Shown here: piece by piece, positions 6,457-64,000 of the stretch | Layout of the letters: every line of letters begins with the position of its first letter | Position numbering within the stretch: position 1 is the stretch's first letter | Source of the DNA: Deltaproteobacteria bacterium | GTDB lineage: Bacteria > Myxococcota_A > Polyangia > JAAYKL01 | Assembly: GCA_016937015.1 (NCBI GenBank) | Contig: JAFGWT010000543.1 | Span: 30,440-94,439, forward strand | Reading direction: 5' to 3' | DNA length: 64,000 bases | Notes under the pieces: model-generated | The model's database searches: none | Told to the model about the DNA's origin: nothing | The model's input: the letters and a program-made list of their open reading frames with translations, nothing else | Translations under genes and position numbers: made by a program

Positions 6457-6963
6457 CTATTGTTGACAGGACAAAATTCTGGCGGGTTTGCCATCGGCTC
6501 TTTTCAATTTGCTGGCAGTGCAACGGCCCATTTCCCGGCACACTTTGGATTTCGTGCAATCCGTATCGCCACCCACAACGCAGAACCCATCATCCCCTGG
6601 GGTACATTTTCCAAATTCGGCGCACACTTCCGATGCCCTGCACCCTTCTCCATCCGCGACACATATTCCAACGGAGCGGTTACCAACGTTGTTGGGTTTA
6701 AAAACGCATTCTCCCAGTTTTGTACAGTTGGTTGATTGTTTGCAATCAATGGGCCTCGTGGCAACACAGCGATCCCCGGGGGCATAAGTACATTTCCCCG
6801 CATTGATGCACTCCTCTTTTTCCAGGCACGACAAATTCTGTACGCAATTGCCCGCCTTTGCCCGTTCAAATCCGATAGGACATGAATCACTGCCCTGGAG
6901 CAGTACACAACCGGATACAAAAGGAAAAAGGGTAATAAAAATAGATGGATAAAGCAGTTTCAT
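6457..6963 (-). CDS. Cys-rich secreted lipoprotein with periodic C-x(5-7)-G-x-C repeats
   Basis: start chosen at internal Met with AGGAGA RBS 7 nt upstream; lipobox FVSGC; 24 Cys in 150 mature residues with recurring (A/P/L)G-x-C motif. Confidence 0.55.
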   Translation of the reverse strand: MKLLYPSIFITLFPFVSGCVLLQGSDSCPIGFERAKAGNCVQNLSCLEKEECINAGKCTYAPGDRCVATRPIDCKQSTNCTKLGECVFKPNNVGNRSVGICVADGEGCRASEVCAEFGKCTPGDDGFCVVGGDTDCTKSKVCREMGRCTASKLKRADGKPARILSCQQ

Positions 6964-7625: not shown

Positions 7626-8489
7626 ATGCTGAACAGAACGATACTTTTTGTAATAATACTGGTGATTTGCGGCTGTGTGAGTACTACCTATGCGCCGCCT
7701 GAGGACGATGTGAAGGATTCGGGGTCTCCCAATGATTCAGATTCGGGGCCAACCGGCGACAGCGACACCGATACCGACACGGACGCTGATACGGACACCG
7801 ATACGGATACTGATACAGACACCGATACCGATACAGACACCGATACCGATACAGACACCGATACCGATACAGACACCGATACGGACACCGATACGGATAC
7901 TGATACAGACACCGATACAGATACAGACACAGATACAGATACAGACACAGATACAGACACAGATACAGACACCGATACGGATACTGACACAGATACCGAC
8001 ACAGACACAGATACTGACATTGATACCACCACTGATTCTGAATCAGGTAGCGACACGATGGATACCGCAGATTCCGAAACGACAGATTCTGGATTGAACT
8101 GCACCGGCGGCACAACGGAATGCAACGGCGACTGCGTTGACTTGACATCAGATCCCAATAACTGCGTGACCTGTGGGAATGTCTGTTCAGACCCCACGCC
8201 ATACTGTGGTGCAACCGGGTGTGAGGCCGGGATTTTGCTGGCATACGGTGTCGGGGTTGAATTAGAGCCTGGCACTTATGCGATAACCACCGGAGCGACA
8301 GATAATCCATCCGGAACTGGTACCCTTGCGTTGCAGTCTGCAGGGGGCACAACCATTGATGCCAGCGTCACCTTTGACGGTACAACCGCCGAGGGCAATG
8401 ATTACTATGTCTCCTTTCCGAATATACCGGAGGAAACGACCGGTTCGCTAACCATCTCTGCATCGGTAACTATTACTTTTGAGTGGTAG
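7626..8489 (+). CDS. secreted lipoprotein: ~90-residue (Asp-Thr)n linker + Cys-rich module + beta-rich C-terminal domain
   Basis: lipoprotein signal (VICGC); DTDTDT... run encoded by GATACNGACACN repeats (7755-8030); C-x-G-x-C-V-D-L-x-S-D-P-N-N-C-x-x-C-G-x-x-C module. Confidence 0.6.
   Translation: MLNRTILFVIILVICGCVSTTYAPPEDDVKDSGSPNDSDSGPTGDSDTDTDTDADTDTDTDTDTDTDTDTDTDTDTDTDTDTDTDTDTDTDTDTDTDTDTDTDTDTDTDTDTDTDTDTDTDTDTDTDTDTDIDTTTDSESGSDTMDTADSETTDSGLNCTGGTTECNGDCVDLTSDPNNCVTCGNVCSDPTPYCGATGCEAGILLAYGVGVELEPGTYAITTGATDNPSGTGTLALQSAGGTTIDASVTFDGTTAEGNDYYVSFPNIPEETTGSLTISASVTITFEW
7755..8030 (+). repeat. GATACN/GACACN hexanucleotide-type coding repeat ((Asp-Thr)n linker)
   Basis: directly visible ~45 dipeptide-coding repeats inside CDS 7626..8489. 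Confidence 0.9.
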
Positions 8490-8585: not shown

Positions 8586-9878
8586 CTAACGTTTCAGGTT
8601 CACGATCTCCTGGTAAAGCTGATCCGCTGTGGTAATGGTTCGGCTGTTGGCCTGGAAACCGCGCTGATATGCAATCAGATCCACAAATTCCGCTGCAAGA
8701 TCCACGTTGGATTGCTCCAATGCGTTTGATGTGATGGACCCGGCAGAACCTTCGCCCGCGCCGCCCACGCGTGCTGCACCGGACCCCTGCGTTTCAGCCC
8801 AGAGATTGCCACCGGCGCGCGCCAGTTCACCCTCGGCGTTGAAAGTCGCCATTGCCACCTGACCCACCAGACGCTGTTCACCGTTGGAGTAAATGGCCAT
8901 CACATGGCCGTTGCCTTCAACTCCCACGCCGTTCAATTCCCCGGTGCCGTAGCCGTCCTGCTCCTGGCTGCGTATGATGCTCGATGCAGCATACTGGGTC
9001 ACGCCATCGAGGCCTGTACCGCCTTCGGCAATGCTTTCGCCAAAATCAACTTGAATATCCTGCGAAGATGCGCCAGCGAAGGTGACCGTAAAAGGTGCGC
9101 TGGTATCATCAGCGAGGAATCCATCTGTGGTGAACGTCATCGTTCCGTTGCCAACCTGAGCATATGCGCCTGGTGTGCCGCCTAAATCGCCGTCATCCAC
9201 CAGACCGTACCATGACCATGCATTGGCACCGGTTTTGGCAAAATAAACGTCCATACGGTGAGATTCGCCAAGCGAATCATATACGGTGATCGCCGTTGAA
9301 AAATTGGATGCAATACCGGGGTCAAAGTTGGGATCCGCCAGATTCCACGGCGCTGTCGGCACATCTGCACCGGAATCCAGGTTTGCGGAAATATCAATGT
9401 TTTCCGATGCCTGAGGTGGCAAAATGGTGTTGGCAATGCGCAGGTCGGTCAGTTGATTGCTGATGTTGCCATTTGCGGTCGCCAGGTACCCCTGCAGGGT
9501 TAATCCCGCAGGATTCACCAGGGCTCCGGAGTTATCAAGCGTAAACTGGCCGGCACGAGTGTAAAAGTCGTTGGTCCACCCTCCGTTATTGCCGTTTACA
9601 ATGAAGAAACCGTTTCCGTTGATGGCGAGATCCGTTGGTGACTCCGTTGTAATAAATGTCCCCTGCGAAAAAACTCGCGTTATCCCCTGAATGGTCGAAC
9701 CCGATCCTGGCGCATCCGTCGCCAGAATGGAATGTCCGAGCACGTCAGCGAATACCACGGATTCCGCCTTGTACCCTGTGGTGTTGACATTGGCGATGTT
9801 GTCACCCACCACGCCAAGCGCTTTGCCATGGGACGCCAGTCCGGCCACGCCTGTGTATAGGGTTTTGATGATACTCAT
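8586..9878 (-). CDS. flgE: flagellar hook protein FlgE
   Basis: N-terminal SxxxGLxxxxxxLxVxGNNIANxNTxGYK and C-terminal VDLAxEFVxLIxxQRGFQANSRxITTADQ signatures. Confidence 0.9.
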   Translation of the reverse strand: MSIIKTLYTGVAGLASHGKALGVVGDNIANVNTTGYKAESVVFADVLGHSILATDAPGSGSTIQGITRVFSQGTFITTESPTDLAINGNGFFIVNGNNGGWTNDFYTRAGQFTLDNSGALVNPAGLTLQGYLATANGNISNQLTDLRIANTILPPQASENIDISANLDSGADVPTAPWNLADPNFDPGIASNFSTAITVYDSLGESHRMDVYFAKTGANAWSWYGLVDDGDLGGTPGAYAQVGNGTMTFTTDGFLADDTSAPFTVTFAGASSQDIQVDFGESIAEGGTGLDGVTQYAASSIIRSQEQDGYGTGELNGVGVEGNGHVMAIYSNGEQRLVGQVAMATFNAEGELARAGGNLWAETQGSGAARVGGAGEGSAGSITSNALEQSNVDLAAEFVDLIAYQRGFQANSRTITTADQLYQEIVNLKR

Positions 9879-10689: not shown

Positions 10690-11547
10690 TCATCGGAGAC
10701 CGGCGTGCGTTGACACTGTGGTCCCGTTGTTATGCTGTCCCTCAACTGAGCCAGCGCGCCTGTACCCTCGGGAAATCTCGAACTGTTCAAGGGAAAGGTC
10801 GATCCCTGAAAGCTGCCGTTTGAGCTCGCCGATTGCAAATGAGAGCGCAGCGGCCGCGCGACGGTCCGTAATGTGCGCGGTAATGAAGACCTTTTTTCCC
10901 TTAAGCGTAACATCCAGTTTTACTTCTCCCAGTTCCTTTAAATCCAGCGTCAAAAAAACGCTGTTTCTTTTGCTCAAGCTGGTACTACGCAAGACGCGTA
11001 CCAACTTTTTGAGTTCTGCCTCTGAAACCAGCGATACCAGTGCAGTCTTGCCTTGAGAAGGCGGGCGAGCAGGCATTGAAGCAAATGCAGATGCTGGAAT
11101 TTCCTTGTTAATTTGCGAATTTGCAACTTCAGATGCTTCAGATTGATGCCCCTTGTGAGCGCCGCGATGACGCGCATTCATCGAGTGATTGCTGTACTGC
11201 TGTTCAGGATTTTGACTACCGGTGCTTTTTACAGTGACAGTGGTATGACGTTTTTCTGACAGATCCCCAGAACTATTGACGCTTTCCGGGATAATCGCTG
11301 GCAGGCAGTGATGTACTGGCCTGTCGTGTCTTTTCTGTTCCTCTTTGTCAGGATTTCCACCTGGGTTCGCTGCGGCAGCGTATAGAGATGCGCCAATTGA
11401 ACCAGCATCGGTGCCTGCTTTTTGACGGGTTTCTTCCATTAATCGGGCAAATGGTGTCAACGCGGGATCCTGTATCACCACTGAATTCGTTGACATGTGC
11501 ATCGGAGGTGCAGGAGTATGGGGCATGGGCAAATCAATCTGCATCAT
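10690..11547 (-). CDS. fliK: flagellar hook-length control protein FliK
   Basis: Pro/Ala/Gln-rich N-terminal half, C-terminal L-x-L-x-L-x-E-L-G-x-V-x-L FliK_C-like segment; position fliJ-flbB-fliK-flgD; ATGA overlap with upstream gene. Confidence 0.7.
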   Translation of the reverse strand: MMQIDLPMPHTPAPPMHMSTNSVVIQDPALTPFARLMEETRQKAGTDAGSIGASLYAAAANPGGNPDKEEQKRHDRPVHHCLPAIIPESVNSSGDLSEKRHTTVTVKSTGSQNPEQQYSNHSMNARHRGAHKGHQSEASEVANSQINKEIPASAFASMPARPPSQGKTALVSLVSEAELKKLVRVLRSTSLSKRNSVFLTLDLKELGEVKLDVTLKGKKVFITAHITDRRAAAALSFAIGELKRQLSGIDLSLEQFEISRGYRRAGSVEGQHNNGTTVSTHAGLR

Positions 11548-12374
11548 TTCTGCTCTCCATCCGTGTCGGTCTTTCCATCGGGCGCTTCTGGCAATGCCAC
11601 GTCTTCCAGCTCCGGAACGGTTGGTACCCTGGGGCCCATCAGGCCGCGCGCGAGCTCCGCGGCCTTTACAGGTGCCATATTGCTTAAAATCTCCGCGGTC
11701 TTGGTGCTGCTCAGTCCGCTCAACACTTCAATTGCGTCTTCAGTGGGCATTGACGTAATCATTTGTGCGCAGGATTGAGGATTCATCCCTTCGATGGTTT
11801 TGAGCAGCTGTTCAACCCGTTGCTGCCTCTCTTTTCGCAACCGTTGAATCTCTGGCTGTAGGCTTTCTTTGTTTTCAGATTCTGTGTAATTAAGATATTT
11901 TACAATGAATTCTTTATGTTTTTCTTTGATTTTTTCCCAGTGCTTCAGGAGCTTTTCATGCTCTTTTTTATACTGTTCAGCAATCTGTGCACCGGCATTG
12001 TTAAGGGTGTCCTGGGTATCGCTTCTGAGTTTTTCAAGGGCCGATTTCTGAAACAGTGCCTCGGATTCAAGCCGGGTAACCATCTGTTCCCGCTGGATTA
12101 TGTCCCGTTCCTTCTGTTCCAGGCTGACGCGTTTTGCTTCGAGCAGCTGCGCAATTTCCACCAGTTCGTTCCCGGTTACCTGGATCGGCGGAATTGCGGA
12201 TAAATCGATCACCTTGTCTTTCGTCGCCGCGCCATTTTCAGTTTCCGCCGCCGTATCTTCGGTGTCCGCAGTATTTGAATCCCTTGCTGTATCTTTGGAT
12301 TTGTCGGACTTTTCAAAATATCCGCAGCCTGCAATAAAAACCAGCCAACCATATATAAATATACGCGTTATCAC
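11544..12374 (-). CDS. flbB: flagellar operon MgtE_N-domain protein (FlbB / YlxF-like)
   Basis: N-terminal TM/lipobox, coiled coil, C-terminal MgtE_N-like segment (AQMITSMPTEDAIEVLSGLSSTKTAEILSNMAPVKAAEL); occupies the ylxF slot of Bacillus/spirochaete fla operons. Confidence 0.6.
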   Translation of the reverse strand: MITRIFIYGWLVFIAGCGYFEKSDKSKDTARDSNTADTEDTAAETENGAATKDKVIDLSAIPPIQVTGNELVEIAQLLEAKRVSLEQKERDIIQREQMVTRLESEALFQKSALEKLRSDTQDTLNNAGAQIAEQYKKEHEKLLKHWEKIKEKHKEFIVKYLNYTESENKESLQPEIQRLRKERQQRVEQLLKTIEGMNPQSCAQMITSMPTEDAIEVLSGLSSTKTAEILSNMAPVKAAELARGLMGPRVPTVPELEDVALPEAPDGKTDTDGEQK

Positions 12375-18359: not shown

Positions 18360-18752
18360 TTATCTACCATCCGCAGCCGCATACTTCAGGATGCCCAGCT
18401 GGTGGCTGACCACTTTGCTCACAGTTTCATATCTCAGGGTATTGGCGTTCAACTGAGCCATTTCCTTGTCGAGACTCACATAGTTCAAGTCATTTCCGGG
18501 AACGTGATCCCGAACTTCGTAAACCTCGTATTCGCTGGCCAGTCCCAGTCCGTTGGTTTTGTAGTGCGTGTCATGGGTGCGCTGCAGCGCCATTGCGAAT
18601 TCACTACCCCCTTCAAAATCGCTTCGTTTTATTTCTTTAGGGGTAAATCCCGGGGTATCCACGTTGGCGATATTCCCCGAAATGAGATTTTGCCGCGCCA
18701 TATGAAAATTCAGGGCGCTCGCAACGCCGTTCACATTGTCAAACATGCTCAT
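18360..18752 (-). CDS. flgB: flagellar basal-body rod protein FlgB
   Basis: SGNIANVDTPGF rod motif, 130 aa, precedes flgC. Confidence 0.9.
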   Translation of the reverse strand: MSMFDNVNGVASALNFHMARQNLISGNIANVDTPGFTPKEIKRSDFEGGSEFAMALQRTHDTHYKTNGLGLASEYEVYEVRDHVPGNDLNYVSLDKEMAQLNANTLRYETVSKVVSHQLGILKYAAADGR

Positions 18753-20332
18753 GGGGTTGCCCCTTTCTTTTTCAGGTTTTCCAGCTGTCCCTGCATCTCC
18801 TGTGTCTGCTTTTTTATCGTTGCCAGAGTGGCCCAGCTGCTGTTGCGATCCTGCAGGATTTTAAGGATACTTTGATACAATCCGTTGTTCTTCTTTTGTT
18901 CCGCATCCAGAAGTCCGTAATACAGCGCATGATCGGGCAACGTACTCAACGCCTTTACCGACAGGCGCTTGCCTTCCTTAAGTGCGATTTCAGTACGCAG
19001 TCTTGTTGCGAATTTGTTCTGAATCCCGTCGATTCGATTTTTGTTCGCGTCCGGGATGATCAGTTCTGTGGAGGTGGCTCGTTCTGCCCGCACCGTCGCT
19101 TCAACGTGTGCCAGATTATCGTGGGATGATAGCGAAATCAGGGTTTCAGCCTCGGTAAAATCATCGACAGCCGCAATCCAATCTCCCTCCTGCAGCCCAA
19201 CATACGCACGCACCCTGAGCAGACGTCCACGCGCCCAACCAGGCAGGGCTTTTTCTTCAAGAAAGTACGATGCGGCGTCTCGTGCTTTTACGTACTGTCC
19301 AGCGTCAAGATATGTTTCGGCCAGTACTGGTGCTGCCCGCAACAAATCCTTGTTGTCCAGTCGTCCCATGATTCTGTCTGAATACGCGGCCAATACAGAA
19401 CCCAATCCAATCCGAATCAGATGGTCCGCCGCGATTTCAAGCAGATTGAGCGAAAAAAATCGCGTTAAGTAGTCTTTTTCAAATTTAATAAACGTGTCTG
19501 TAAGCCTGGAGGTGTCATCCAAACGTGCGTATTTCAGCAGTGTATTGATTAGGATTGTTTTTCGATGTGTTTCTATTCGCTGCAGAATCTTTTCAGATTC
19601 TTTCTCTCTGTTAGGGGTTTCTCGGAGATAGTCACCCAAAGTGCTTAAAATGTATTCCGCTTCATCCACATCACCAATGGAAAATTGACACCAGGAGATC
19701 AGAAATGCTGATTCGATGGCTTCGGGTGTATCAAATCTGCTGGAGAGCGGATTGCACTTTGCTGCGACACTTTCAGTGAGTGCTGCCTCCACCACATTGA
19801 TGCGGTTTTCGGTCAACAGTTTCTTTTCCGGTGCTGCGGATTCTTCGAGAAAAAGCGCCTTGCGCGCACCGACAACATCGCCCTTTTTTAACAGTTCTAT
19901 TGTATGAACAGGCAGTGGAACAAGCGAATCCGGATCGAGCAAAGCGTTCAGTGCATCCTTTTCCGAACGTGAATTGCCAACGATAATTTGGACCTTTTTA
20001 TGCTGTTTCTTTCCATTGAATTTTAAAGACGCATTCTTGGAGTACAGCTCAACGGTCATTTTGGACTGACGGTTTGGGAACAGCCGATACTCAATATCAG
20101 TATTTTCAAGCGAATCACGAATTTCCTGCTCCTGCACAGGTGACCATTCCCTGAAATACATACGCACGCCACGCTCATCTTCGTCCTCTTCCAGATGAAC
20201 AATTTTTTCGTCAAAGGCCAGAACAGAAAGCTCTTTGAGTGACCACATGTCGTCATCAGCGGCGGCAATGCCTGGCAAAACGATGGCGACTGAAAAGAGT
20301 AACGTGATGTGAATTTTATTCGGACATTTCAT
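18749..20332 (-). CDS. secreted TPR-like/helical-repeat protein, first gene of the flagellar operon
   Basis: clear signal peptide (KIHITLLFSVAIVLPGIAAA); 4-nt overlap with flgB start implies co-transcription; no recognisable catalytic motif. Confidence 0.5.
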   Translation of the reverse strand: MKCPNKIHITLLFSVAIVLPGIAAADDDMWSLKELSVLAFDEKIVHLEEDEDERGVRMYFREWSPVQEQEIRDSLENTDIEYRLFPNRQSKMTVELYSKNASLKFNGKKQHKKVQIIVGNSRSEKDALNALLDPDSLVPLPVHTIELLKKGDVVGARKALFLEESAAPEKKLLTENRINVVEAALTESVAAKCNPLSSRFDTPEAIESAFLISWCQFSIGDVDEAEYILSTLGDYLRETPNREKESEKILQRIETHRKTILINTLLKYARLDDTSRLTDTFIKFEKDYLTRFFSLNLLEIAADHLIRIGLGSVLAAYSDRIMGRLDNKDLLRAAPVLAETYLDAGQYVKARDAASYFLEEKALPGWARGRLLRVRAYVGLQEGDWIAAVDDFTEAETLISLSSHDNLAHVEATVRAERATSTELIIPDANKNRIDGIQNKFATRLRTEIALKEGKRLSVKALSTLPDHALYYGLLDAEQKKNNGLYQSILKILQDRNSSWATLATIKKQTQEMQGQLENLKKKGATP

Positions 20333-20466: not shown

Positions 20467-20562
20467 TCAATGGACGATGCAGGCAATGGACGATGCAGGC
20501 AATGGACGATGCAGGCAATGGACGATGCAGGCAATGAACGATGCAGGCAATGGACGATGCAG
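20467..20562. repeat. 6 x 16-bp perfect tandem direct repeat (CAATGGACGATGCAGG; copy 5 has one G>A)
   Basis: read directly from sequence; lies in the 270-bp leader between the xylanase 3' end and the flagellar operon start. Confidence 0.95.
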
Positions 20563-20603
20563 GTTTGCGATAAATCGACGGGGAAAGGAATGGGGAAGTG
20601 GAA

Positions 20604-21779
20604 TCAGTCGAACCTAACGGTTACTTCAGCGTGACCGGAGCTATGATATCCCTCTACAACCAACGATACCTCGTAGAAAGATCCCATTTGCAGGCCATAC
20701 TGTCCCCATGCCTGAAAGTGGGGGGCGACAGTAATCGTGCCGCTGGTACGCTTGTCGGTGCGCACGCTCCAGAACTGTGGGAAAGTGGCGGTTCCTTCGA
20801 TGGACGGCTGGTTGATTCGGTCGCTTTTGTATACCTCATAAGTGCCACCATCCACCTGAATCGTACCCAGGGGGCTTGTCCCTGGTGGACGCCAGCTGCC
20901 CCAGCTATCCACGATGTAGTATTCAACCAACGGATTTTGCGTCCAGCCGTAAATCGCCAGATAGGAATTGCCGTTGGGCTGGTAATTCGCACTGTAGGTC
21001 ACCACAGGCTCGGCGGATCCGGGTCTGACGCCTTTTCGGGCCAGATAATTCCCCTGTGCCTCGGTCCAGTCTGCGACAAAGCCGACCGCGGTATTGGTCA
21101 TACAGGCGGAACCACTGTCCGTCCAGATTTCGTAGGTGAGTCCGCAATGCTTACCTGACTGTGCGCTCGCGCAAGCCTGCATATCCCCTTCGGTACATGC
21201 GGGGGGATCGGCGTCTGTATCCGTGTCCGTATCGGTATCAGTGTCCGTATCAGTGTCCGTATCAGTGTCTGTGTCCGTATCGGTATCGGTATCCGTATCA
21301 GTGTCCGTATCAGTGTCGGTGTCAGAATCCGTAGCGCCGGGTTCGCAACAGATTGGTGTCTCTGATGGACATGTGTAGTCGGGGAGATAAGTGCCATTCA
21401 TGTTTCGACATTCTCCCTGTCCAACACAAGTTCCCGGACAATTCGTATCGCCATCTGAATCAGTGTCCGTATCTGTATCGCTGTCCGAATCCGAGTCTGA
21501 ATCGGTATCTGTATCCGTGTCCGAGTCGGTGTCTGAATCTGAATCAGTGTCTGAATCTGAATCAGTATCCGAATCAGTGTCTGAATCAGTGTCTGAATCC
21601 GAATCAGAATCGCTGTCAGTGTCTGTGTCACTGTCGGTATCTGCATCTGAATCCGAATCGCTATCTGAGTCGGAATCTGAATCGCTGCTGCCTTCTCTTA
21701 AATTGTCTTCTCCGCCAGTACACGCCGCGAAGAGAGAGACGGCAGACAGTAAGATTAAAACCAGTGCATGCTTCGTCAT
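20604..21779 (-). CDS. GH11 endo-1,4-beta-xylanase with lipoprotein signal, two (Asp-Ser/Asp-Thr)n linkers and an 8-Cys mini-module
   Basis: C-terminal 190 aa align by eye to GH11 signatures ([22 protein letters not shown] ... [12 protein letters not shown] ... [21 protein letters not shown]; both catalytic Glu present); start set at Met with lipobox LFAAC. Confidence 0.9.
21201..21332 (-). repeat. (Asp-Thr)n coding repeat, xylanase linker 2
   Basis: GTATCNGTGTCN repeats visible on + strand. Confidence 0.9.
21444..21686 (-). repeat. (Asp-Ser/Asp-Thr)n coding repeat, xylanase linker 1
   Basis: ~80-residue SD/TD run encoded by GA(R)TC/GTGTC-type repeats. Confidence 0.9.
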
Positions 21780-27286: not shown

Positions 27287-28177
27287 ATGAAGATGGTTAC
27301 TTTTACTCGGTCTGCCTTATTATTGTTTTTACTGTTTTTGTTGCTTGCAATGATATCGTGTTCGGAAAAGAGCGCGGATGAGCCACTGAATGACACCAAC
27401 CTCTCGGAGAATCAAGATACTACCACTGATTTTTCTGGCGACACGGATACTGATACCGACACCGATACTGATACAGATACCGACACCGATACTGATACCG
27501 ACACAGATACTGACACAGATACTGATACAGATACTGATACAGATACTGATACCGACACTGATACCGACACTGATACTGATACAGATACCGACACAGATAC
27601 TGTTACCAACACAGATGTCGACATGCATTCCGATTCAGATACGGCTACTGGTTCTGAAGATGATACAGACACTGGTTCCGGTTTAAATACTGATTCTGAT
27701 TTTGATGCTGACAGTGTTACTGACACAGATACGCATGCTGATTCCGACACGAGTGCCGACGCGAATACTGATACCGCAACAGATTCCGGCACCGATGCCG
27801 CCCCGGTGGCTGCTATTCTGGACGATTTACATCCGGGGTGGTACGCAAATGACTGGCACTACAAATCCAACTGCGCCTATAGTAACTGCCACAATGGTCT
27901 TGGTCCGGATCTGCCCACCGATCATGGAAGCTACGACGAACCATATTGCGCGGATTGCCATGGGGGAAATGGCGCATGGAAGCCAAATACTGCACACAAC
28001 CACCACCCGTCCCCCATGCCGACGAATTGTACTGGTTGCCATACCAACGGGCAACATGGCTTTACTCAGGACGCGGATTGCATTGCCTGCCATCTTGCGA
28101 ATGTTGGTACGGTGGATGGCTTCAGCACGCTTGGATGCGAAGCCGTGATATGCCATGCGGTTACCCCCACGCCGTAA
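27287..28177 (+). CDS. lipoprotein with (Asp-Thr)n linker and C-terminal c3-like multihaem cytochrome module
   Basis: GGAGG RBS; signal+lipobox (LAMISC); 3 canonical CxxCH (CADCH, CTGCH, CIACH) plus 2 CxxxxCH (CAYSNCH, CEAVICH) within ~100 aa with many extra His. Confidence 0.6.
   Translation: MKMVTFTRSALLLFLLFLLLAMISCSEKSADEPLNDTNLSENQDTTTDFSGDTDTDTDTDTDTDTDTDTDTDTDTDTDTDTDTDTDTDTDTDTDTDTDTDTDTDTVTNTDVDMHSDSDTATGSEDDTDTGSGLNTDSDFDADSVTDTDTHADSDTSADANTDTATDSGTDAAPVAAILDDLHPGWYANDWHYKSNCAYSNCHNGLGPDLPTDHGSYDEPYCADCHGGNGAWKPNTAHNHHPSPMPTNCTGCHTNGQHGFTQDADCIACHLANVGTVDGFSTLGCEAVICHAVTPTP
27441..27620 (+). repeat. (Asp-Thr)n coding repeat
   Basis: GATACNGACACN-type repeats, ~58 residues of pure DT. 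Confidence 0.9.
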
Positions 28178-31985: not shown

Positions 31986-34145
31986 ATGAAACAGAAAAGA
32001 ATATTTAGACACATCGGGTGGCTTGCGGTGCGGGCTGTTTTACTGTCAGTGACACTGCTTGGGACAGGATGCGGCGACGATGCCGGCGAATGGCAGAGCA
32101 TGAAGGTCCGGATGGTGCGCCACAACCTTATTTCTTTCAACAATGCACAGTCGTTTGTGGCGTATGCACAGGACGCAGCCAGCCAACGCATGCGGGCAGA
32201 GGTTGAACTTCAACGTGCTCAGGACATTGCGTGGCTGACCACCGAGCCGGCATTGCGTGATATGCCAACCGCCAACGCTGATGTTGATTACGCCGAAGAT
32301 ATGGATTCGAGTTCTTCAGATGCCAAAGGCGATGACGCCGGCGGCACGGCAGGGCATTCAACGACGAACACCCAGGAGGCTGGTGTGGATGAGGCGGACA
32401 TAGTTAAAACCGATGGGCAGTATATCTATGCTTTGAGTGGCGGAAAGCTGGTTATCGTAAAAACGCAGGAAGGCGTTTTAACAAAATCCGGCAGCATTGA
32501 CGTGGGTGGGTTCGCAAGGGAGATGTTCATTAACGGTAACGTGGTCGCTGTGTTTTCGAATCGTGCAGAAGCGGATGTGCCAGAAGAAATGCGCTATCCA
32601 ATGAACGATAATGCAAATCTGTACAACATCAAATATGACGACATGTCCGTAGATGATGTGGCGATGCCCGATTCGGATCCAGGAACGGGAAAAGCCTATT
32701 GCGACGAGTATGGTTGTGCAGGCAACACATATCTGCAACTGGCGCTCGTGGATGTGAGCAATCCATCGGCGCCGTCGCTTATCCGCACGATGATTTACGG
32801 CGGACAGTATGTGACGTCTCGCATGGTTAATGGCGTTGCGCGTCTCGTGCTGGACACACCTCTGTATAATCTCTCCATGACCTGGGACTATGGCGACAAT
32901 CCGGACTGGTCAACAGAGCAGGGGCTCAATACGGCCTATGCGAACGTGATTCGCGAAAATGAAACCGCATTCAGCGCATTGACGATGAAAGACATTGTTC
33001 CCGGAAAATGGGATTCCAAAACAAACGCAGTCACACTTCTGGTGAATCCTGAAAATATTACTGCGCCGCAAACACCCAATGGGGTTGGATTACAAACAAT
33101 TGTGTCTATTGATTTAAATAGCCCTATGGCCGATTCCACGCAGGAAGGTGTTTTTTCACAGCGTGGCATTGTCTATGCCAGCACAGAATCCCTTTATCTC
33201 ACAAGTGCCAGAGACTGGGTATCCCTTGCAATGGAATCGGGCCTTTGGTCAGGTTATGAAAACCAGACAACCGGTATTCATAAATTTGACATCAGCGGCA
33301 ACACATTGGATGTTCCCTGGTTGGCCACCGGCACTGTGGACGGACGGCTGCTGAATCAGTTCAGCATGGGCGAGAAGGATGGATACCTGCGGGTTGCGTC
33401 CACTACAGGTGATTTCTGGTGGGGCGATGCTGGAAACACGCTGGACAACCACGTGTTTGTCTTGGGGCAGGCGGGAACGATGCTTAAACAGATCGGCCAT
33501 ATAAGTGGACTCGGTGCGGGAGAGGAAATCTACGCCGTGCGTTTCATGGGCGACAAAGCATTTATTGTCACATTTTTCCAGAGCGATCCCCTGTTCACCA
33601 TTGACCTTAGCGACCCCGCGAACCCAACAAAACTGGGCGAATGGGTTGGTCCGGGATATTCAACGTATCTGCATCCGTACGGCGACAATCTGTTGATTGC
33701 ACTTGGGGAGGAAGACTGGCAACCGACGATCTCCCTATACAATATTGCAGATTTCTTCAATCCGGTTCTGGTTCAGCGCATTCCGCTTGGCACTGACGCA
33801 TGGAGTGCTGCGCTCTACGATCACAAGGCATTCACCTTTAATCCCGAAACAGGCTTTTTGGCTCTTCCCTTCAGTGGCTGGACAGACGGTTTTCAGACGG
33901 GAATTTTGACTTACAAAATCAGTGAGGGCGGTATCGAACCCCGCGGAACCCTTAACATGGCCACTGAGGATGACTCATATTACTCTGAAGCGTTGCGTTC
34001 GATGTACATTGATGAGTTTCTCTATGGAATGTCCAGATGCAGCATCGGTTCGGCGCCAATCGATTCTCCGGAAAGCATCACTTCAAGCGTGGCATTGTTT
34101 GACGGAGAAAACTGCGCCGGCGATTTGTATCCGTACTGGTACTGA
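31986..34145 (+). CDS. secreted beta-propeller-domain protein (COG4880/Beta_propel-like)
   Basis: start at MKQKRIF with signal/lipobox (LLGTGCG); early EAGVDEADIVKTDGQYIYALSGGKLVIV motif that I recall as characteristic of this family; ~700-aa beta-rich remainder. Confidence 0.5.
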   Translation: MKQKRIFRHIGWLAVRAVLLSVTLLGTGCGDDAGEWQSMKVRMVRHNLISFNNAQSFVAYAQDAASQRMRAEVELQRAQDIAWLTTEPALRDMPTANADVDYAEDMDSSSSDAKGDDAGGTAGHSTTNTQEAGVDEADIVKTDGQYIYALSGGKLVIVKTQEGVLTKSGSIDVGGFAREMFINGNVVAVFSNRAEADVPEEMRYPMNDNANLYNIKYDDMSVDDVAMPDSDPGTGKAYCDEYGCAGNTYLQLALVDVSNPSAPSLIRTMIYGGQYVTSRMVNGVARLVLDTPLYNLSMTWDYGDNPDWSTEQGLNTAYANVIRENETAFSALTMKDIVPGKWDSKTNAVTLLVNPENITAPQTPNGVGLQTIVSIDLNSPMADSTQEGVFSQRGIVYASTESLYLTSARDWVSLAMESGLWSGYENQTTGIHKFDISGNTLDVPWLATGTVDGRLLNQFSMGEKDGYLRVASTTGDFWWGDAGNTLDNHVFVLGQAGTMLKQIGHISGLGAGEEIYAVRFMGDKAFIVTFFQSDPLFTIDLSDPANPTKLGEWVGPGYSTYLHPYGDNLLIALGEEDWQPTISLYNIADFFNPVLVQRIPLGTDAWSAALYDHKAFTFNPETGFLALPFSGWTDGFQTGILTYKISEGGIEPRGTLNMATEDDSYYSEALRSMYIDEFLYGMSRCSIGSAPIDSPESITSSVALFDGENCAGDLYPYWY

Positions 34146-52648: not shown

Positions 52649-53569
52649 ATGAAAAAACAAAACCTATTATTAATCTTAGCGATGGCGCTGCTTACCGGTT
52701 TTGCATTTATTGGATGCGGAACCGATGATGAGGGCCCGGGCCTGAACAAGTCTGCCACAGGCGACTCTGACAGTGACACTGACAGCGACAGCGACTCTGA
52801 CAGTGATTCAGACAGCGACAGCGACTCAGATAGCGACAGCGACTCAGACAGCGACAGCGATACTGACAGCGATAGCGATAGCGATGGCGGTGGTACCGAA
52901 TGTGACGGCAACGACAAAGATTGCTACAGCGAATGCTGGGGTTGTGCATTGTCTTCAGCTGCACTTTGTAAACCAACGCTTGAAGATTGCCTGATGGACA
53001 CAAAATGTGCTGCGTATTACGATTGCAAAGACAAAACCTGCTGTGGCGGTAACGACAACTGCCTCACTGGCGACGAGTGGGAAGACTGCATGAAAGGTTG
53101 TGCTGAAACCGCAGAAGCAACCGATGCAACTCTCGAAATGTATAAAGACATCGATTATTGTGTTGCCTGTGAAGCATGTGAAATCTCATGCGCACAGGGC
53201 GAGTCCGCTGACTTCGCCATGTGTGGTAATCCTGAAGATATGAACAACCCCGACAATCCCTGCTACGAAGCCGATGCTGAACCCGGTCAGACTGCCTGTT
53301 TCTCATGGGCCGGTTGGGGTGGACCCTGTACGACCGCCGTTACAAACTGCAAAAACGACGACAAATGTGAGACTCTGGAGACATGTGTAAACGAAACCTG
53401 GGCGTATGACGATTGGTCCGCCCGTCAGGACGTTTGTTTCGCAGATGCTGGATCAGCTGCCGAAACACTGTATTGGGCTTACATGCAATGCATCTACTGT
53501 GACGCATGTGATGTCGCCTGTCTTAAAGATGCTGGCTCCAAAAACTGCGACGAATACAGCGGTAAATAG
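52649..53569 (+). CDS. Cys-rich secreted lipoprotein, paralogue A ((Asp-Ser)n linker + ~250-aa novel Cys-rich domain)
   Basis: TGAGGG RBS; lipobox FIGC; shares with paralogue B the motifs CDGxDxDCYxxCWGCALSS, CVACxxCxISC, ACFSWAGWGGPC, DDWSARQD, YMQCIYCxAC. Confidence 0.6.
   Translation: MKKQNLLLILAMALLTGFAFIGCGTDDEGPGLNKSATGDSDSDTDSDSDSDSDSDSDSDSDSDSDSDSDSDTDSDSDSDGGGTECDGNDKDCYSECWGCALSSAALCKPTLEDCLMDTKCAAYYDCKDKTCCGGNDNCLTGDEWEDCMKGCAETAEATDATLEMYKDIDYCVACEACEISCAQGESADFAMCGNPEDMNNPDNPCYEADAEPGQTACFSWAGWGGPCTTAVTNCKNDDKCETLETCVNETWAYDDWSARQDVCFADAGSAAETLYWAYMQCIYCDACDVACLKDAGSKNCDEYSGK
52763..52885 (+). repeat. (Asp-Ser)n coding repeat (GACAGY/GAYTCN)
   Basis: visible hexanucleotide repeats within paralogue A. 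Confidence 0.9.
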
Positions 53570-53791: not shown

Positions 53792-54724
53792 ATGAAAAGG
53801 TTAACGTTTTTATCAACCCGTGTAGTGCGTTTTTTCTTTGTATTGTTTTTATTGGCAGGCTGCAATGTGAACAACGGTTCATCTGAAACAGGCGCCGATT
53901 CCGATTCTGATGCCGACACAGATTCTGATGCCGATACAGATTCTGACACCGATTCAGACACGGATGCTGATTCCGAATCGGATTCCGGCGGAGAGGACTC
54001 CGAAACAACGGCTGAATGTGATGGCGCCGACATGGATTGTTATGATGATTGCTGGGGCTGTGCCTTATCGTCTTCGGCTTGCAAACCGCTGGTCGAACAA
54101 TGCTTGTCGGATACAGTCTGCGCAGCATATTACAACTGTAAAACAACAGACTGTTGTGACGAAAACAATAACTGCCTCGAAGGCGATGCATGGGAGGCAT
54201 GCATGGCGGATTGCTCCGCTGAAGCTGAACTGACAGAGGCCGCATTTAACATGTTCACGGCCATTGACAAGTGTGTGGCCTGCGATGAATGCAGCATATC
54301 CTGCGGAGAAAAGCGAAAAGATGAGTTCTCCATGTGCGTGGATCCTGTGGTGGATATAACCATCGATACGCCTTGTTATGATGAAGACATTGAAGGCGAG
54401 GAAGTTGCCTGCTTTTCGTGGGCTGGCTGGGGCGGACCGTGTAGCTGGGCCACTAAACAGTGTAAAGATAACGCGGATTGCGCCGCTCTAGAAACGGCAA
54501 TTAACGAGACTTGGGAGTTTGATGACTGGAGTGCGCGCCAGGACATCATTTGGGGTGAGACGGCAGATGACATTGAAGCGCTCTATTGGGAATATATGCA
54601 ATGCATTTACTGTGGCGCCTGCTACGAAACCAAGTGCTATTCTCACGCGCAATCGAAGAATTGCGAGGAATACTGGGAAACGCATGGTGGCGGTGAAGAA
54701 GATACTGAAACTGCCTCAGAGTAA
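53792..54724 (+). CDS. Cys-rich secreted lipoprotein, paralogue B
   Basis: GGAGG RBS 6 nt upstream; lipobox LAGC; (Asp-Ser/Asp-Thr/Asp-Ala)n linker 53881-53995; same conserved Cys-rich domain as paralogue A. Confidence 0.6.
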   Translation: MKRLTFLSTRVVRFFFVLFLLAGCNVNNGSSETGADSDSDADTDSDADTDSDTDSDTDADSESDSGGEDSETTAECDGADMDCYDDCWGCALSSSACKPLVEQCLSDTVCAAYYNCKTTDCCDENNNCLEGDAWEACMADCSAEAELTEAAFNMFTAIDKCVACDECSISCGEKRKDEFSMCVDPVVDITIDTPCYDEDIEGEEVACFSWAGWGGPCSWATKQCKDNADCAALETAINETWEFDDWSARQDIIWGETADDIEALYWEYMQCIYCGACYETKCYSHAQSKNCEEYWETHGGGEEDTETASE

Positions 54725-57750: not shown

Positions 57751-58243
57751 TTTTTTCCGTTGCACTGACGACGTTCATTCTCGGATTAGACCGATAGGGG
57801 AACCAGTTGCCAGTGCACCCTTTTTCGGTTCACCGACTGGAATCGCACAACTGTCTCACCGGTAATATGTATGTTGTGGCGACTGTTGGCGAATCAAAAT
57901 CAAATGATATCCAATAGCCCGCAAAAGAAGACAATGTCTCAACAGCCATGCTGGAAATTAGAATTGCCAAGCCGGTGCTGGCCCTTTGCGTGGCGAACCA
58001 CGGTGTCGGATGCGGAATAAGTTGAGGCAACAGTTATTGACGGTCGCTGGCAGATGGTACTGGATTGCACAGGGAGCGAGAAGTCTGGAGCCCGTCAGGG
58101 AGAGCCCGTCAGGGAGAGCCCGGCAGGGATTTTGTGTAACCTGTCCTGACATCGTTAAACAGGTACCCGGTTTTCCCAGTGGGCACTTTTCTGTTTGCGG
58201 TAAAGAAGATTCTGACGGGCTCCTTGGGCTCGGCTCAAGAGCG

Positions 58244-59593
<1,350 letters not shown>

Positions 59594-62232: not shown

Positions 62233-64000
62233 TTATTCGAAGATTTCGCGAACGCAACGTCCACCAATGGCTGAAGAGGTCGTGGCAGGGGCTTCCTTAT
62301 CCCGCGCGGCGTTTCTGAATGCGGATGCATACATGCTGTTGTAGCTGCCGCCGCGAACAACAAATTCGTCACCAACCGGGGGGCCTTGTGGGTTGATGCA
62401 GCTTTCTCCTGCACATCCTCCCAGAACCTCACCATATAAATCCTGTGTCCATTCAGAAACGTTGCCCATCATATCGTATAGTCCAAATGCGTTGGGTTGA
62501 AGACTTCGCACTTCGAAAACACGCGATGTGCCACAGCCAGGATTGTCCTCGTTCATGATGACACGGGAGCAGTCAGGTGCAGGCGTGTTTCCCCAGGGAT
62601 ACGCATAATATGTGTCCGCAACTCCATCGTGACCACACCTGGCCGCGTTTTCCCACTGGGCCTCGGTCGGAAGATCCCCCTCCAGATAGCTGCAGAATTC
62701 CAGGAGGCCTTCGTGGGTGATGCAGTTTATTGGCGCTGTGTTGTTTTCCTTGCCGTTGAATGTGCAACCGGTGGTGGTTGCCACATTGGCTGCATTGCAT
62801 CCGCCGTTCCGGACGCATACCGCATACATGCCCGCCGTCACTTCGCTGTCCATAATGTAATAATCAGAAAGTGTGACCGGAACACGCTGCTCATCATTAT
62901 CGCAATTTGTATCGAGGGACCAGTCACATCCCAGCGTGATCTCGCCGCCGCTGATTCGAACCCACGCCATACCATCCATCCCCGCTGGCACACACTTGTT
63001 ATCGACACTGCATGTCTCACCCGAGCCACATTCACCGCAGTCGACGTCGCCAACGGAACCGCACTCGATGTTATTGCATACATCCACACATACGCCGGCG
63101 TTATTACAGCCGAACATGTTGCCGAGGGAGGAACAGTCTCCACAGCTCACGCCCTCTACTGTACCGCATTGACGATCGCCGCATGCGTCCACACATGCCC
63201 CATTGCTGTCACATCCGAAAGTTGCGCCGTATTCGCTGCAATCGCCGCAGCTGATGCCATCGACAATGCCACACTCGCGATTTGAGCATACGTCAAAACA
63301 GGTGTGTGTTTCTGAACAGGCATAGGTAGCGCCATAGTCCGAACAATCACCGCAATTTACTCCGAGCAGCAAACCGCATTGGGCATTGGCACAGGCATCG
63401 ACACATTTGTAGTCGCTGCAGGTGTAGGTGAGACCTTGAGCGCAAGTGCCGCAATTGACGCCATTGGCAATACCGCATTCATAGGATGAATCGCAGGCAT
63501 CCAGACATTGGCCTGTCTCATTGCAGAATTCTCCATCACTGCACGTGCCGCAAATAAATCCGTCAACAGTTCCGCAAACCTGATTTAAACATGGAAACGC
63601 CACCTCGGCAGGTGTGCACCCAACAATATCAAAATCTGTTGCATCGTACCTGGTCTCAAGAATTCCGGTTTTACCGTCCTTGCTGATTTCTATCTCAAGT
63701 GTGCGAACGCCACCCACCCGTGGACTGCAGATACCCATTAGATAATATGATTTGGAGATGTCATGAATCAGAGCGGTGATTTTGGCAAAAGATGTTTTCA
63801 GCGCATCTGTGTTGGCGGCCCATTCAAATCCGTTTTTGCCAAACTGTTCCAATTCCTCCTGGTTGACATCGGTTCCAAGACCGACGGTGTACACGTAAAC
63901 TTCTGAAGATTGAATCAAATGATCCGCGGTTGTCTTTGACGCTGCCATTGCTTCATCAGTTCCATCGGTAAACAGAACCATGGATTCTGCTGATAAAATA
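62233..64000 (-). CDS. partial (N-terminus beyond window) multidomain protein: vWA-like + six ~35-aa Cys-rich repeats + C-terminal FGE/SUMF1-like domain lacking catalytic Cys pair
   Basis: LFTDGTD vWA motif; repeats of C-V-D-(A/V)-C-x-x-x-x-C-G-x-x-x-G-(V/I)-x-C-G-x-C; C-terminal FGE-like motifs (YAYPWGN, GLYDMMGNVSEWTQD, RGGSYNS) with SUMF1 GGSYMCHRSYC replaced by GGSYNSMYASAF. Confidence 0.7.
   Translation of the reverse strand, partial: ILSAESMVLFTDGTDEAMAASKTTADHLIQSSEVYVYTVGLGTDVNQEELEQFGKNGFEWAANTDALKTSFAKITALIHDISKSYYLMGICSPRVGGVRTLEIEISKDGKTGILETRYDATDFDIVGCTPAEVAFPCLNQVCGTVDGFICGTCSDGEFCNETGQCLDACDSSYECGIANGVNCGTCAQGLTYTCSDYKCVDACANAQCGLLLGVNCGDCSDYGATYACSETHTCFDVCSNRECGIVDGISCGDCSEYGATFGCDSNGACVDACGDRQCGTVEGVSCGDCSSLGNMFGCNNAGVCVDVCNNIECGSVGDVDCGECGSGETCSVDNKCVPAGMDGMAWVRISGGEITLGCDWSLDTNCDNDEQRVPVTLSDYYIMDSEVTAGMYAVCVRNGGCNAANVATTTGCTFNGKENNTAPINCITHEGLLEFCSYLEGDLPTEAQWENAARCGHDGVADTYYAYPWGNTPAPDCSRVIMNEDNPGCGTSRVFEVRSLQPNAFGLYDMMGNVSEWTQDLYGEVLGGCAGESCINPQGPPVGDEFVVRGGSYNSMYASAFRNAARDKEAPATTSSAIGGRCVREIFE

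Follow-up and report, generated by a model that had tools for sequence, protein, structure and literature searches.

Background

Why would one bacterium place the same kind of long acidic repeat in several lipoproteins that have little else in common? The question is raised by a 64,000-nucleotide (nt) stretch of DNA, hereafter the window, from a Deltaproteobacteria bacterium (GenBank assembly GCA_016937015.1, contig JAFGWT010000543.1, positions 30,440 to 94,439 of the forward strand). A repeat at 7755-8030 of the window, in the frame of the open reading frame (ORF) 7626-8489, translates to about 45 Asp-Thr units, and a first-pass annotation made from the sequence alone had proposed that similar linkers recur in other secreted lipoproteins encoded nearby. 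We found no description of Asp-Thr repeats, DTDTDT peptides or this tether architecture in the searchable literature.

Here we document the anatomy of these tracts, their association with lipoboxes, their distribution, the pattern of their conservation and the dynamics of their DNA. We argue that the tract is probably the core of a long, disordered, polyanionic tether that runs from a lipid-anchored Cys to a folded cargo and acts as a spacer. Alternative roles in trafficking, cation binding, glycosylation and phase variation, as well as the absence of any selected role for the acidity, are weighed where the evidence bears on them.

Results and discussion

Eight acidic tracts lie in frame in six lipoprotein genes

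Tandem Repeats Finder picks out 6-, 12- and 18-nt periods at 7757-8019. A six-frame scan of the window found eight acidic low-complexity tracts, every one of them in the frame of a long ORF, with no tract in any other frame: one each in ORFs 7626-8489, 27287-28177, 52649-53569 and 53792-54724, two in ORF 20604-21779 and two regions in ORF 58244-59593. The pattern (GAY-WSN)x5 matched the window 118 times, compared with no match in each of 100 dinucleotide-preserving shuffles. The repeats described by the first-pass annotation are therefore real, as eight in-frame acidic tracts in six ORFs, all with a signal peptide and a lipobox Cys, and its gene coordinates (7626, 20604, 27287, 52649, 53792 and 58244) are correct gene starts or ends. 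We refer to the products of the six ORFs, in order of position, as P1 to P6; they comprise five unrelated families plus one paralogue pair, which the first-pass annotation had also noted.

The tract that prompted the study, the (Asp-Thr)n tether of P1, covers about 97 residues at 7749-8039 on the plus strand (scan run 7749-8045). P2, encoded on the minus strand, has two tracts. The first, recognised by translation and six-frame scan, is a mixed Asp-Ser/Asp-Thr tract of about 85 residues at 21438-21692 (scan run 21438-21710) leading from the lipobox to a six-Cys mini-module; the second, an (Asp-Thr)n tract of about 47 residues at 21198-21338 (scan run 21198-21344), lies between that mini-module and a glycoside hydrolase family 11 (GH11) domain. 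On the plus strand, Tandem Repeats Finder and the scan both detect the (Asp-Thr)n tract of P3 (about 61 residues, 27425-27607) and the (Asp-Ser)n tract of P4 (about 47 residues, 52754-52894, scan run 52754-52906), the latter built from the 18-nt unit GACAGCGACTCAGACAGC, and the scan detects a mixed Asp-Ser/Thr/Ala tract of about 33 residues in P5 (53888-53986, scan run 53882-54037). P6, on the minus strand, has an N-terminal poly-Asp tether at 59336-59494 (scan run 59336-59506) whose core is about 38 Asp in a row, and translation and scan also reveal two internal poly-Asp runs of 9 and 15 Asp at 58679-58807 that form an inter-domain linker.

All six proteins pass a lipobox rule of the PROSITE PS51257 type (Lys or Arg in the n-region, an uncharged hydrophobic h-region and [LVI..][ASTVI..][GAS]-Cys at position 15-35), with the sites ICG-Cys17 (P1), FAA-Cys20 (P2), MIS-Cys25 (P3), FIG-Cys23 (P4), LAG-Cys24 (P5) and LVG-Cys21 (P6). 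Tracts are carried by 6 of about 9 plausible lipoproteins of the window versus 0 of about 45 other genes, the roughly three plausible lipoproteins that lack one being 6457-6963, 11544-12374 and 31986-34145; a scan of all window ORFs found no D-x repeat in any ORF beyond the six. Translation, lipobox rule and domain matches agree that acidic linkers join a lipid-anchor signal to diverse functional modules. The first-pass annotation placed the linker between lipobox and module in each case, which holds for the N-terminal tracts but not for the second xylanase linker or the internal poly-Asp runs of P6, both of which are inter-domain. Because the same tract type also occurs between domains, a generic spacer fits better than a purely N-terminal signal.

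The tethers are strongly charged and predicted to be extended

The strict repeats measure 33-97 residues and the whole low-complexity tethers 58-152 residues. Net charge per residue is -0.35 to -0.51, Lys/Arg and hydrophobic residues are almost absent, and the contour length is 21-55 nm. The tracts start at +9 to +25 relative to the lipidated Cys in the window, with a median of +17 among global matches. In length and in their poverty of hydrophobic residues the tethers fall among linkers of the Escherichia coli type, in which a disordered segment of more than 22 residues follows the Cys.

The tract proteins have an isoelectric point (pI) of 4.05, against a median of 5.9 for the other 46 window ORFs (Lys+Arg 11.3%), which rules out an acidic proteome of the halophile type. 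GC content can likewise be dismissed as the source of the D-x composition, the tracts occurring on contigs of GC 0.41-0.72. The window encodes other very acidic, Lys/Arg-poor exported proteins, namely FlgE (8586-9878), a beta-propeller lipoprotein (31986-34145) and the product of ORF 62233-63981, with pI 4.1-4.3 and Lys+Arg 3.7-6.3%; its cytoplasmic proteins are ordinary.

The closest physical precedent is staphylococcal. The window tracts align to the Ser-Asp (SD) region of the NCBIfam models SdrC, SdrD, ClfA and ClfB, and to that region only, the scores of 22-90 bits lying far from the whole-protein cut-offs of 999-2500. Circular dichroism, analytical ultracentrifugation as well as small-angle X-ray scattering have shown the SD region of SdrC to be disordered and highly extended, with electrostatic repulsion making it resist compaction (PMC9881980). 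By analogy with SdrC, we infer that the tethers are disordered and extended and that they function as spacers.

A mechanism can be outlined on this basis. The N-terminal diacylglyceryl-Cys would anchor the lipoprotein to the membrane, with the tether joining this anchor to the cargo module. Having Asp at every second position and almost no Lys/Arg, the chain would repel itself and would also be repelled by an anionic membrane or lipopolysaccharide (LPS) surface, and this repulsion would keep it extended. The cargo (polysaccharide hydrolases, a cytochrome, lectin-like and orphan modules) would then be held tens of nanometres off the membrane while still attached to the cell or its vesicles.

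Related GH11 lipoproteins share the layout but have neutral tethers

The 120 best GH11 relatives of the window xylanase P2 are mostly from Myxococcota (Sorangium, Anaeromyxobacter, Polyangiaceae), and none of the 120 contains (D[ST])4 or longer. The same order of lipobox, long low-complexity tether (median 90 residues) and GH11 domain is found in the 42 relatives with intact N-termini, whose tethers contain 34% Gly, 13% Thr, 12% Ser and 12% Ala; acidic residues amount to no more than about 5%, and the median net charge is -3.5. The tether of the window xylanase comprises 171 residues, 40% of them acidic, and has a net charge of -66. Since the relatives have the same layout with neutral tethers, the general design is phylum-wide and the acidic D-x composition is the variant. 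The window tracts would be a local acidic version of a Myxococcota-wide architecture of lipobox, low-complexity tether and cargo, in which the tether is elsewhere neutral and rich in Gly, Thr and Ser, and the GH11 architecture with a neutral tether is their probable evolutionary background.

A short acidic patch right after the Cys (C-S-G-x-D-D and variants), which recalls the SDDDD export signal of Bacteroidota lipoproteins, places at least two Asp/Glu at +2 to +9 in 35 of the 42 Myxococcota GH11 lipoproteins; in the window, P2, P3 and P4 have two or three acidic residues in this interval, P5 and P6 one each and P1 none. This patch may be a sorting signal of secreted Myxococcota lipoproteins, and it is one hint that the disordered acidic N-terminus as a whole could be needed for the Lol pathway or another route of surface export or vesicle packing, a role that would be compatible with that of a spacer. 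Sorting functions of this kind are known elsewhere. Outer-membrane lipoproteins of E. coli need a sufficiently long disordered linker for Lol-dependent sorting, and about half of them begin with a disordered linker that exceeds 22 residues (bioRxiv 10.1101/2021.01.05.425367). These linkers (RcsF, Pal, NlpD; El Rayes et al.) resemble the window tethers in that a disordered segment directly follows the lipidated Cys and its length and disorder matter, not its sequence, but they are about 20-50 residues long, non-repetitive and not polyanionic. In Bacteroidota, a lipoprotein with two to four acidic residues past its Cys is thereby brought to the cell surface and packed into vesicles (PMC5080379, PMC6222051). 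Finally, a LolA gene lies near a cluster of tract genes at locus L205, and lgt adjoins a tract gene at locus L207.

The details fit a sorting signal less well. The lipoprotein export signal of Bacteroidota, C-X-K-(D/E)2-X or S-D-D-D-D, is critical in its position at +2 to +6 (PMC5080379). Like the window tracts it puts negative charge just past the lipidated Cys of glycan-degrading lipoproteins; unlike them it belongs to another phylum and spans 4-5 residues at strictly defined positions, where the window tracts start at +9 to +25 and run for 30-100 residues. Fifty to 150 residues are more than a sorting signal needs, the same tracts stand between domains and inside large non-lipoproteins, P1 lacks any acidic residue at +2 to +9, and related Myxococcota sort homologous GH11 lipoproteins with neutral tethers. 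A spacer is favoured over a pure sorting signal because of the inter-domain use, the occurrence in large non-lipoproteins and a start outside the Bacteroidota window. We therefore regard trafficking as unlikely to be the main function, while a contribution of the tract to sorting is plausible by comparison with the linkers of E. coli.

Length and charge are kept between orthologues while the sequence changes

The Cys-rich module family to which P4 and P5 belong has eight members among 5.8 billion proteins. Of the six with an intact N-terminus, five have a lipobox and an acidic tract, the sixth (P0007) having a Ser/Thr/Asp-rich non-repeat region in its place. Linkers in one orthogroup measure 60, 57 and 62 residues with net charges of -23, -23 and -24, and those in the other 50, 44, 38 and 41 residues. 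The repeat type nevertheless differs among members, being (DS)n, (GDSDSDSD)n or mixed DT/DA/DG. Lengths and charges are thus held while the repeat sequence differs, which indicates selection on composition, length and charge rather than on sequence.

P1 and its counterpart at the syntenic locus L001 can be aligned just over the signal peptide, the post-Cys spacer and the tract; their tracts are about 97 and 70 residues long and their cargo is unrelated. Here, as in the Cys-rich family, lengths differ between orthologues, in keeping with the variable stalk length suggested by the first-pass annotation. An exact look-up in public assemblies returned neither the window FlgE nor P1.

The repeats change by block duplication rather than by slippage

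Internal block duplications are visible in the DNA of the tracts. The P1 tract holds an exact internal repeat of 53 nt, a length reached by 0 of 200 synonymous shuffles (none exceeded 38 nt), and a perfect period-18 run of 71 nt. Higher-order periods are 48 nt in xylanase linker 2, 54 nt in the cytochrome P3, 18 nt in the poly-Asp tract of P6 and 24-48 nt in other lineages. The repeats had also been called ideal substrates for slippage and inter-locus recombination, and neither idea survives inspection. The longest perfect runs of 6-nt period reach only 10-35 nt, no longer than with random synonymous codon order. The exact words that DT tracts of different loci have in common reach only 14-17 nt, and 199-200 of 200 synonymous shuffles gave longer ones, so neither gene conversion nor inter-locus exchange is indicated; the repeats are near-identical at the level of a degenerate consensus but not as exact DNA words. 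Neighbouring codon units tend to differ, weakly; an apparent strong avoidance of identical adjacent codon units was reduced to this trend on 26 tracts (Stouffer Z -2.7).

The tracts are therefore degenerate repeats that change by occasional duplication or loss of 18-54 nt blocks, not hypermutable microsatellites. Their DNA would grow and shrink by such rare events and then drift at synonymous sites. This bears directly on whether they are contingency loci, whose hypermutable repeats would let strains diverge rapidly in length or expression (phase or antigenic variation). Their location inside genes for likely surface proteins, the differing lengths of orthologues and the 71-nt run in P1 would suit such a role. 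However, the 6-nt unit lies in frame within the coding sequence, so that the tracts cannot be on/off switches; perfect period-6 runs are at the shuffle expectation; and loci share no sequence blocks. Two pairs of independent assemblies, each pair of one population (L203/L204 and L205/L206), have five tracts (1.3 kb) that are identical, while a tandem-domain gene at another locus of the same two MAGs (metagenome-assembled genomes) differs by one unit. This comparison is a weak test, as the genomes are otherwise identical save for a 151-nt contig-end artefact and the tract protein was the look-up key for one gene per pair, and the identity only shows that tracts assemble reproducibly. Contingency is, all told, a highly improbable explanation.

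The differing gene of the first pair, at L203:12349-17160 and L204:12349-17478, adjoins a tract lipoprotein gene and encodes a giant tandem-domain protein of 1603 versus 1709 residues, one 106-residue unit apart, in assemblies that otherwise show one mismatch in 12.3 kb; the difference is either true copy-number variation or repeat collapse in assembly. Many matches to (DT)8-coding DNA in metagenomes (L082-L201) lie within the first or last 50 nt of contigs, and this set also includes simple sequence outside coding regions, in TH/TQ/HR contexts and probably from eukaryotes. The tracts are evidently places where short-read assemblies break. Because so many tracts stand at contig ends, MAGs from short reads probably under-represent or truncate tract genes, and tract lengths taken from such assemblies need caution.

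The same body of evidence addresses a neutral origin, in which flexibility alone is needed and Asp-x is a by-product of slippage and mutational bias that ran away into low complexity. Such a view gains from the turnover of repeat sequence between orthologues, the visible block duplications and the Gly/Thr/Ser tethers that do the same job in other Myxococcota; in addition, the cargo modules and other exported proteins are also acidic and poor in Lys/Arg, so the tether may follow a general trend. It does not account for strict D-x alternation at GC 0.41-0.72, which base-composition bias cannot explain, for orthogroup lengths and net charges that stay in narrow bands despite sequence turnover, or for the confinement of the window tracts to lipoproteins. 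Codon order, moreover, is scrambled as if random, so slippage of a single unit alone did not build the tracts. We consider neutrality unlikely.

Tract lipoproteins are enriched in the host lineage and occur far beyond it

The flagellar genes of the window, encoding FlgE and FliF, help to place its host. The window FlgE shares 90% identity with its counterpart in MAG JAFGQN01, 77% with that in JAFGXQ01 and 64% with that in JAFGVO01, all of them 'Deltaproteobacteria' from the Zodletone spring; identity to the FlgE of other Myxococcota is 40-62%. Judged by this protein, the window genome belongs to the Polyangia order JAFGXQ01 (Zodletone-type Myxococcota), for which these three accessions are the defining ones. 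Members of this order have been described as anaerobic, flagellated and enriched in GH5/9/10/11/12, with no mention of lipoproteins or repeats (bioRxiv 10.1101/2021.07.06.451402). Of 80 loci centred on FlgE, just those of the closest relatives (L001, L004, L005 and L006) contain D-x tracts; the syntenic locus L081 adds the genus JAFGXQ01 to the carriers. Tract genes number 0.5-3 per 10 kb in the loci of tract-carrying lineages; a further 74 Myxococcota loci, 1.19 Mb in all, give a density of 0.03 per 10 kb, a figure that represents four weak non-repeat cases.

Beyond this lineage, the scan of metagenomes for (DT)8-coding DNA gave, among the matches listed, at least 12 bacterial ORFs (about 17 with borderline cases) with a tract 6-48 residues past a lipobox Cys, on contigs of GC 0.53-0.72. 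An exhaustive phmmer search with P1 of 1.84 billion cluster representatives returned 3,934 matches at E<=1e-3; of the best 150 of these, 97 have a lipobox and, within 70 residues, an N-terminal tract, and a further 14 or so narrowly miss this. In an alignment of the 97 proteins the lipobox Cys is the sole invariant column, followed by Asp at every second position. Their cargo, mostly of types that act outside the cytoplasm, includes Lcl_C (13 members), GH12, GH11, GH5, pectate lyase, beta-helix, Laminin_G, propellers and redoxin, many proteins having no family, and a few MAGs supply many members of the set. Myxococcus-type Cys-rich repeats (DUF4215, TIGR02232) are found in the neighbourhoods of global matches, and these repeats and the accession prefixes hint that the carriers are mostly Myxococcota. 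The linkers had been thought lineage-specific: they are strongly enriched in the host lineage compared with other Myxococcota, but the same layout extends to thousands of protein clusters over GC 0.41-0.72.

Several of these matches stand out. The densest cluster we met, at L205:890-14200 (JBNLED010000085, GC 0.60), comprises six consecutive tract-lipoprotein genes in 14 kb with tracts of 25-141 residues; one of the genes encodes a GH12 enzyme, and the LolA gene lies 4 kb downstream. At L162 and L200, large non-lipoprotein ORFs contain internal Asp-Thr tracts of about 474 and 190 residues, so that giant internal spacers are another use of this tract type. A Cys-rich 'knot' such as C-x-G-x-x-G-C-x-C...C-D-P-G-x-x-C recurs between lipobox and tract in many global tract lipoproteins (P0214, P0140, P0163, P0183, P0208, P0227, P0229 and L150).

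The cargo of the six window lipoproteins

P1 (7626-8489, plus strand; lipobox ICG-Cys17) has a 24-residue spacer before its tract, which is followed by a Cys-rich module and a small beta domain. This cargo is an orphan: a word-indexed protein search found no homologue of it. Pfam gives weak matches to Stig1 and to the compositional family 'Mucin', and the Cys-rich module weakly matches the NCBIfam MXAN_6577-like Cys-rich family (NF041328), at 33.8 bits, below the cut-off of 100.

P2 (20604-21779, minus strand; FAA-Cys20) is a xylanase. Its GH11 domain at about 20619-21143 matches Pfam Glyco_hydro_11 (PF00457) with E=1.2e-64 and 217.7 bits against a cut-off of 27, over profile positions 3-178 of 178; the six-Cys mini-module between its tracts lies at 21339-21437 (minus strand). 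The intergenic region that separates the xylanase gene from the start of ORF 18749-20332, likewise on the minus strand, contains at 20468-20563 a near-perfect tandem array of six 16-nt units (CAATGGACGATGCAGG, 97% matches), which could be a regulatory binding array. A second short intergenic tandem array adjoining a tract gene, three copies of the 14-nt unit GAGCCCGTCAGGGA at 58088-58129, lies just 3' of the P6 gene.

The first-pass annotation spoke of redox modules, and this applies to the cytochrome only. P3 (27287-28177, plus strand; MIS-Cys25) appears to be a multihaem c-type cytochrome lipoprotein by its three CxxCH and two Cx4CH haem motifs, with a tether that extends to about residue 175; its matches to Pfam c3 (Cytochrom_c3_2) and c7 and to NCBIfam CctA all fall below cut-off. 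P4 (52649-53569; FIG-Cys23) and its paralogue P5 (53792-54724; LAG-Cys24), both on the plus strand, have 27-28 mostly invariant Cys (28 in the cargo of P4), including two CxxCxxCxxxC motifs, and a Sec-type signal without a twin-Arg motif. A 2x[4Fe-4S] ferredoxin was ruled out for their cargo on the structural model, which is confidently all-alpha (pLDDT, predicted local distance difference test, 78.5) and places the CxxCxxCxxxC motifs inside helices; no Protein Data Bank entry matched this Cys-rich fold by structure or sequence. The two genes are flanked by a sulfatase/fumarate-reductase cluster and by a cluster encoding ferredoxin and pyruvate:ferredoxin oxidoreductase.

P6 (58244-59593, minus strand; LVG-Cys21) continues with CKKNK from the lipobox Cys, so that Lys stands at +2. 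Beyond the 38-residue poly-Asp tether it has two C2-type domains separated by the two poly-Asp runs (Pfam C2 in two stretches, 51.9 bits against a cut-off of 22, best match at about 58319-58540), and its gene is missing from the syntenic locus L081. C2 domains typically bind Ca2+ and phospholipid and are uncommon in bacteria. It is conceivable that P6 is a Ca2+-dependent membrane-to-membrane tether.

P6 also bears on a possible role of the tracts in binding cations or minerals, whereby carboxylates would bind Ca2+, Mg2+ or Fe and serve for cross-linking to LPS or exopolysaccharide, for metal buffering or for attachment of cells to mineral or substrate surfaces. About one carboxylate per two residues is available, orthologues often have GD(T/S)D(T/S)D units that resemble DxDxDG calcium loops, and P6 combines poly-Asp with domains of a class that typically depends on Ca2+. 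Yet Pfam and NCBIfam scans of the six proteins found no match to TSP_3, RTX or other curated calcium-binding repeats, the window tracts mostly lack the Gly of DxDxDG, and no metal-handling genes are obviously linked to tract genes. Cation binding would also leave the position between lipid anchor and cargo unexplained, and as the main function it seems improbable.

Resemblance to staphylococcal stalks and cellulase linkers

Of the known systems, the R region of the staphylococcal Clf/Sdr proteins (ClfA, ClfB, SdrC/D/E) is the most similar, being an alternating tract of Asp and a hydroxy amino acid, tens to hundreds of residues long, between an envelope anchor and a functional domain. The similarity extends to degenerate 18-nt units: the staphylococcal SD-repeat unit is GAYTCNGAYTCNGAYAGY, P4 has the unit given above, and the P1 tract and the P6 poly-Asp also have 18-nt periods. 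The differences are nonetheless fundamental. In staphylococci the tract stands on the C-terminal side of the functional domain and is followed by an LPXTG sortase anchor to Gram-positive peptidoglycan, whereas the window tracts are N-terminal, follow a lipobox and belong to a diderm; the sortase motif LP.[TSA]G is in none of the six window proteins. The window tracts also contain mostly Thr rather than Ser, and carry enzymes and cytochromes instead of MSCRAMM adhesin domains. The likeness is convergent, not homologous.

Staphylococcal SD repeats are O-glycosylated by SdgA and SdgB. The inter-domain linkers of cellulases and xylanases are Pro/Thr/Ser-rich, usually uncharged and often glycosylated. 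Like these linkers, the window tracts are low-complexity, extended segments in secreted glycoside hydrolases, and xylanase tract 2 similarly joins a Cys-rich module to the catalytic domain, but they have no Pro and an extreme charge density. Both precedents invite the view that the tract is a mucin-like stalk whose alternate Ser/Thr are O-glycosylated, which would make it stiff and protease-resistant. With Ser/Thr at nearly every alternate position and the weak compositional 'Mucin' match of P1, such a stalk could be imagined. Glycosylation cannot, however, be a common requirement, given the poly-Asp of P6 and the Asp-Ala/Asp-Gly units of orthologues, which have no hydroxyl, and no glycosyltransferase was noticed next to tract genes, although they were not searched systematically. 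We see only a small chance that glycosylation is what the tracts are for.

Weighing the spacer interpretation

A surface, vesicle or matrix location for the tethered enzymes is argued for by the need of xylanases and cellulases for polymers outside the cell, and Myxococcus xanthus secretes lipoproteins to its matrix by an unknown route (PMC3222651). In the same species, Lys at +2 marks retention in the inner membrane (PMC3222651).

Five points weigh against the spacer interpretation. The +2 Lys of P6 corresponds to the M. xanthus inner-membrane signal, and a periplasm-spanning role would fit equally well. Disorder and extension are deduced from composition; the single-sequence AlphaFold2 model of P1 (pLDDT 47) is of low confidence and predicts no secondary structure across the tract, and this means only that no structure was predicted. 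The evidence for conserved length comes from seven proteins of one family. Tract lengths among the global matches are biased by the 97-residue P1 query. Finally, the acidity is not explained by spacing alone, because a neutral spacer evidently works in related bacteria. Taken with the evidence above, these points leave an extended polyanionic spacer as the explanation we hold to be probable, though by no means secure.

A more ambitious interpretation is that the Asp-x tract marks a dedicated lipoprotein display system of Myxococcota-like bacteria, and that it would be at once an export ticket to the surface, vesicles or matrix and the builder of a cation-bridged, enzyme-carrying anionic 'brush' around the cell. 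We think this quite unlikely. If true, such a display system would take the place, in anaerobic polysaccharide degraders, of surface organisation of the cellulosome or Sus kind, and redox proteins would be carried too, such as the tethered multihaem cytochrome.

Conclusions

The feature is probably a polyanionic variant of the disordered lipoprotein tether, widespread in uncultured bacteria that are probably mostly Myxococcota. Lipoprotein sorting and surface display are poorly understood outside Proteobacteria, Bacteroidota and spirochaetes. The tether provides a recognisable mark, a lipobox followed after about 17 residues by 30-150 residues of Asp-x, on exported proteins in their thousands that are as yet uncharacterised and often polysaccharide hydrolases, and thereby allows prediction of the tethered exoproteome of these uncultured bacteria. 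The occurrence of acidic and neutral tethers on homologous GH11 enzymes amounts to a natural experiment. As a second, independent origin of the solution embodied in the staphylococcal SD stalk, the tracts would argue for polyanionic self-avoidance as a general way of building a stalk.

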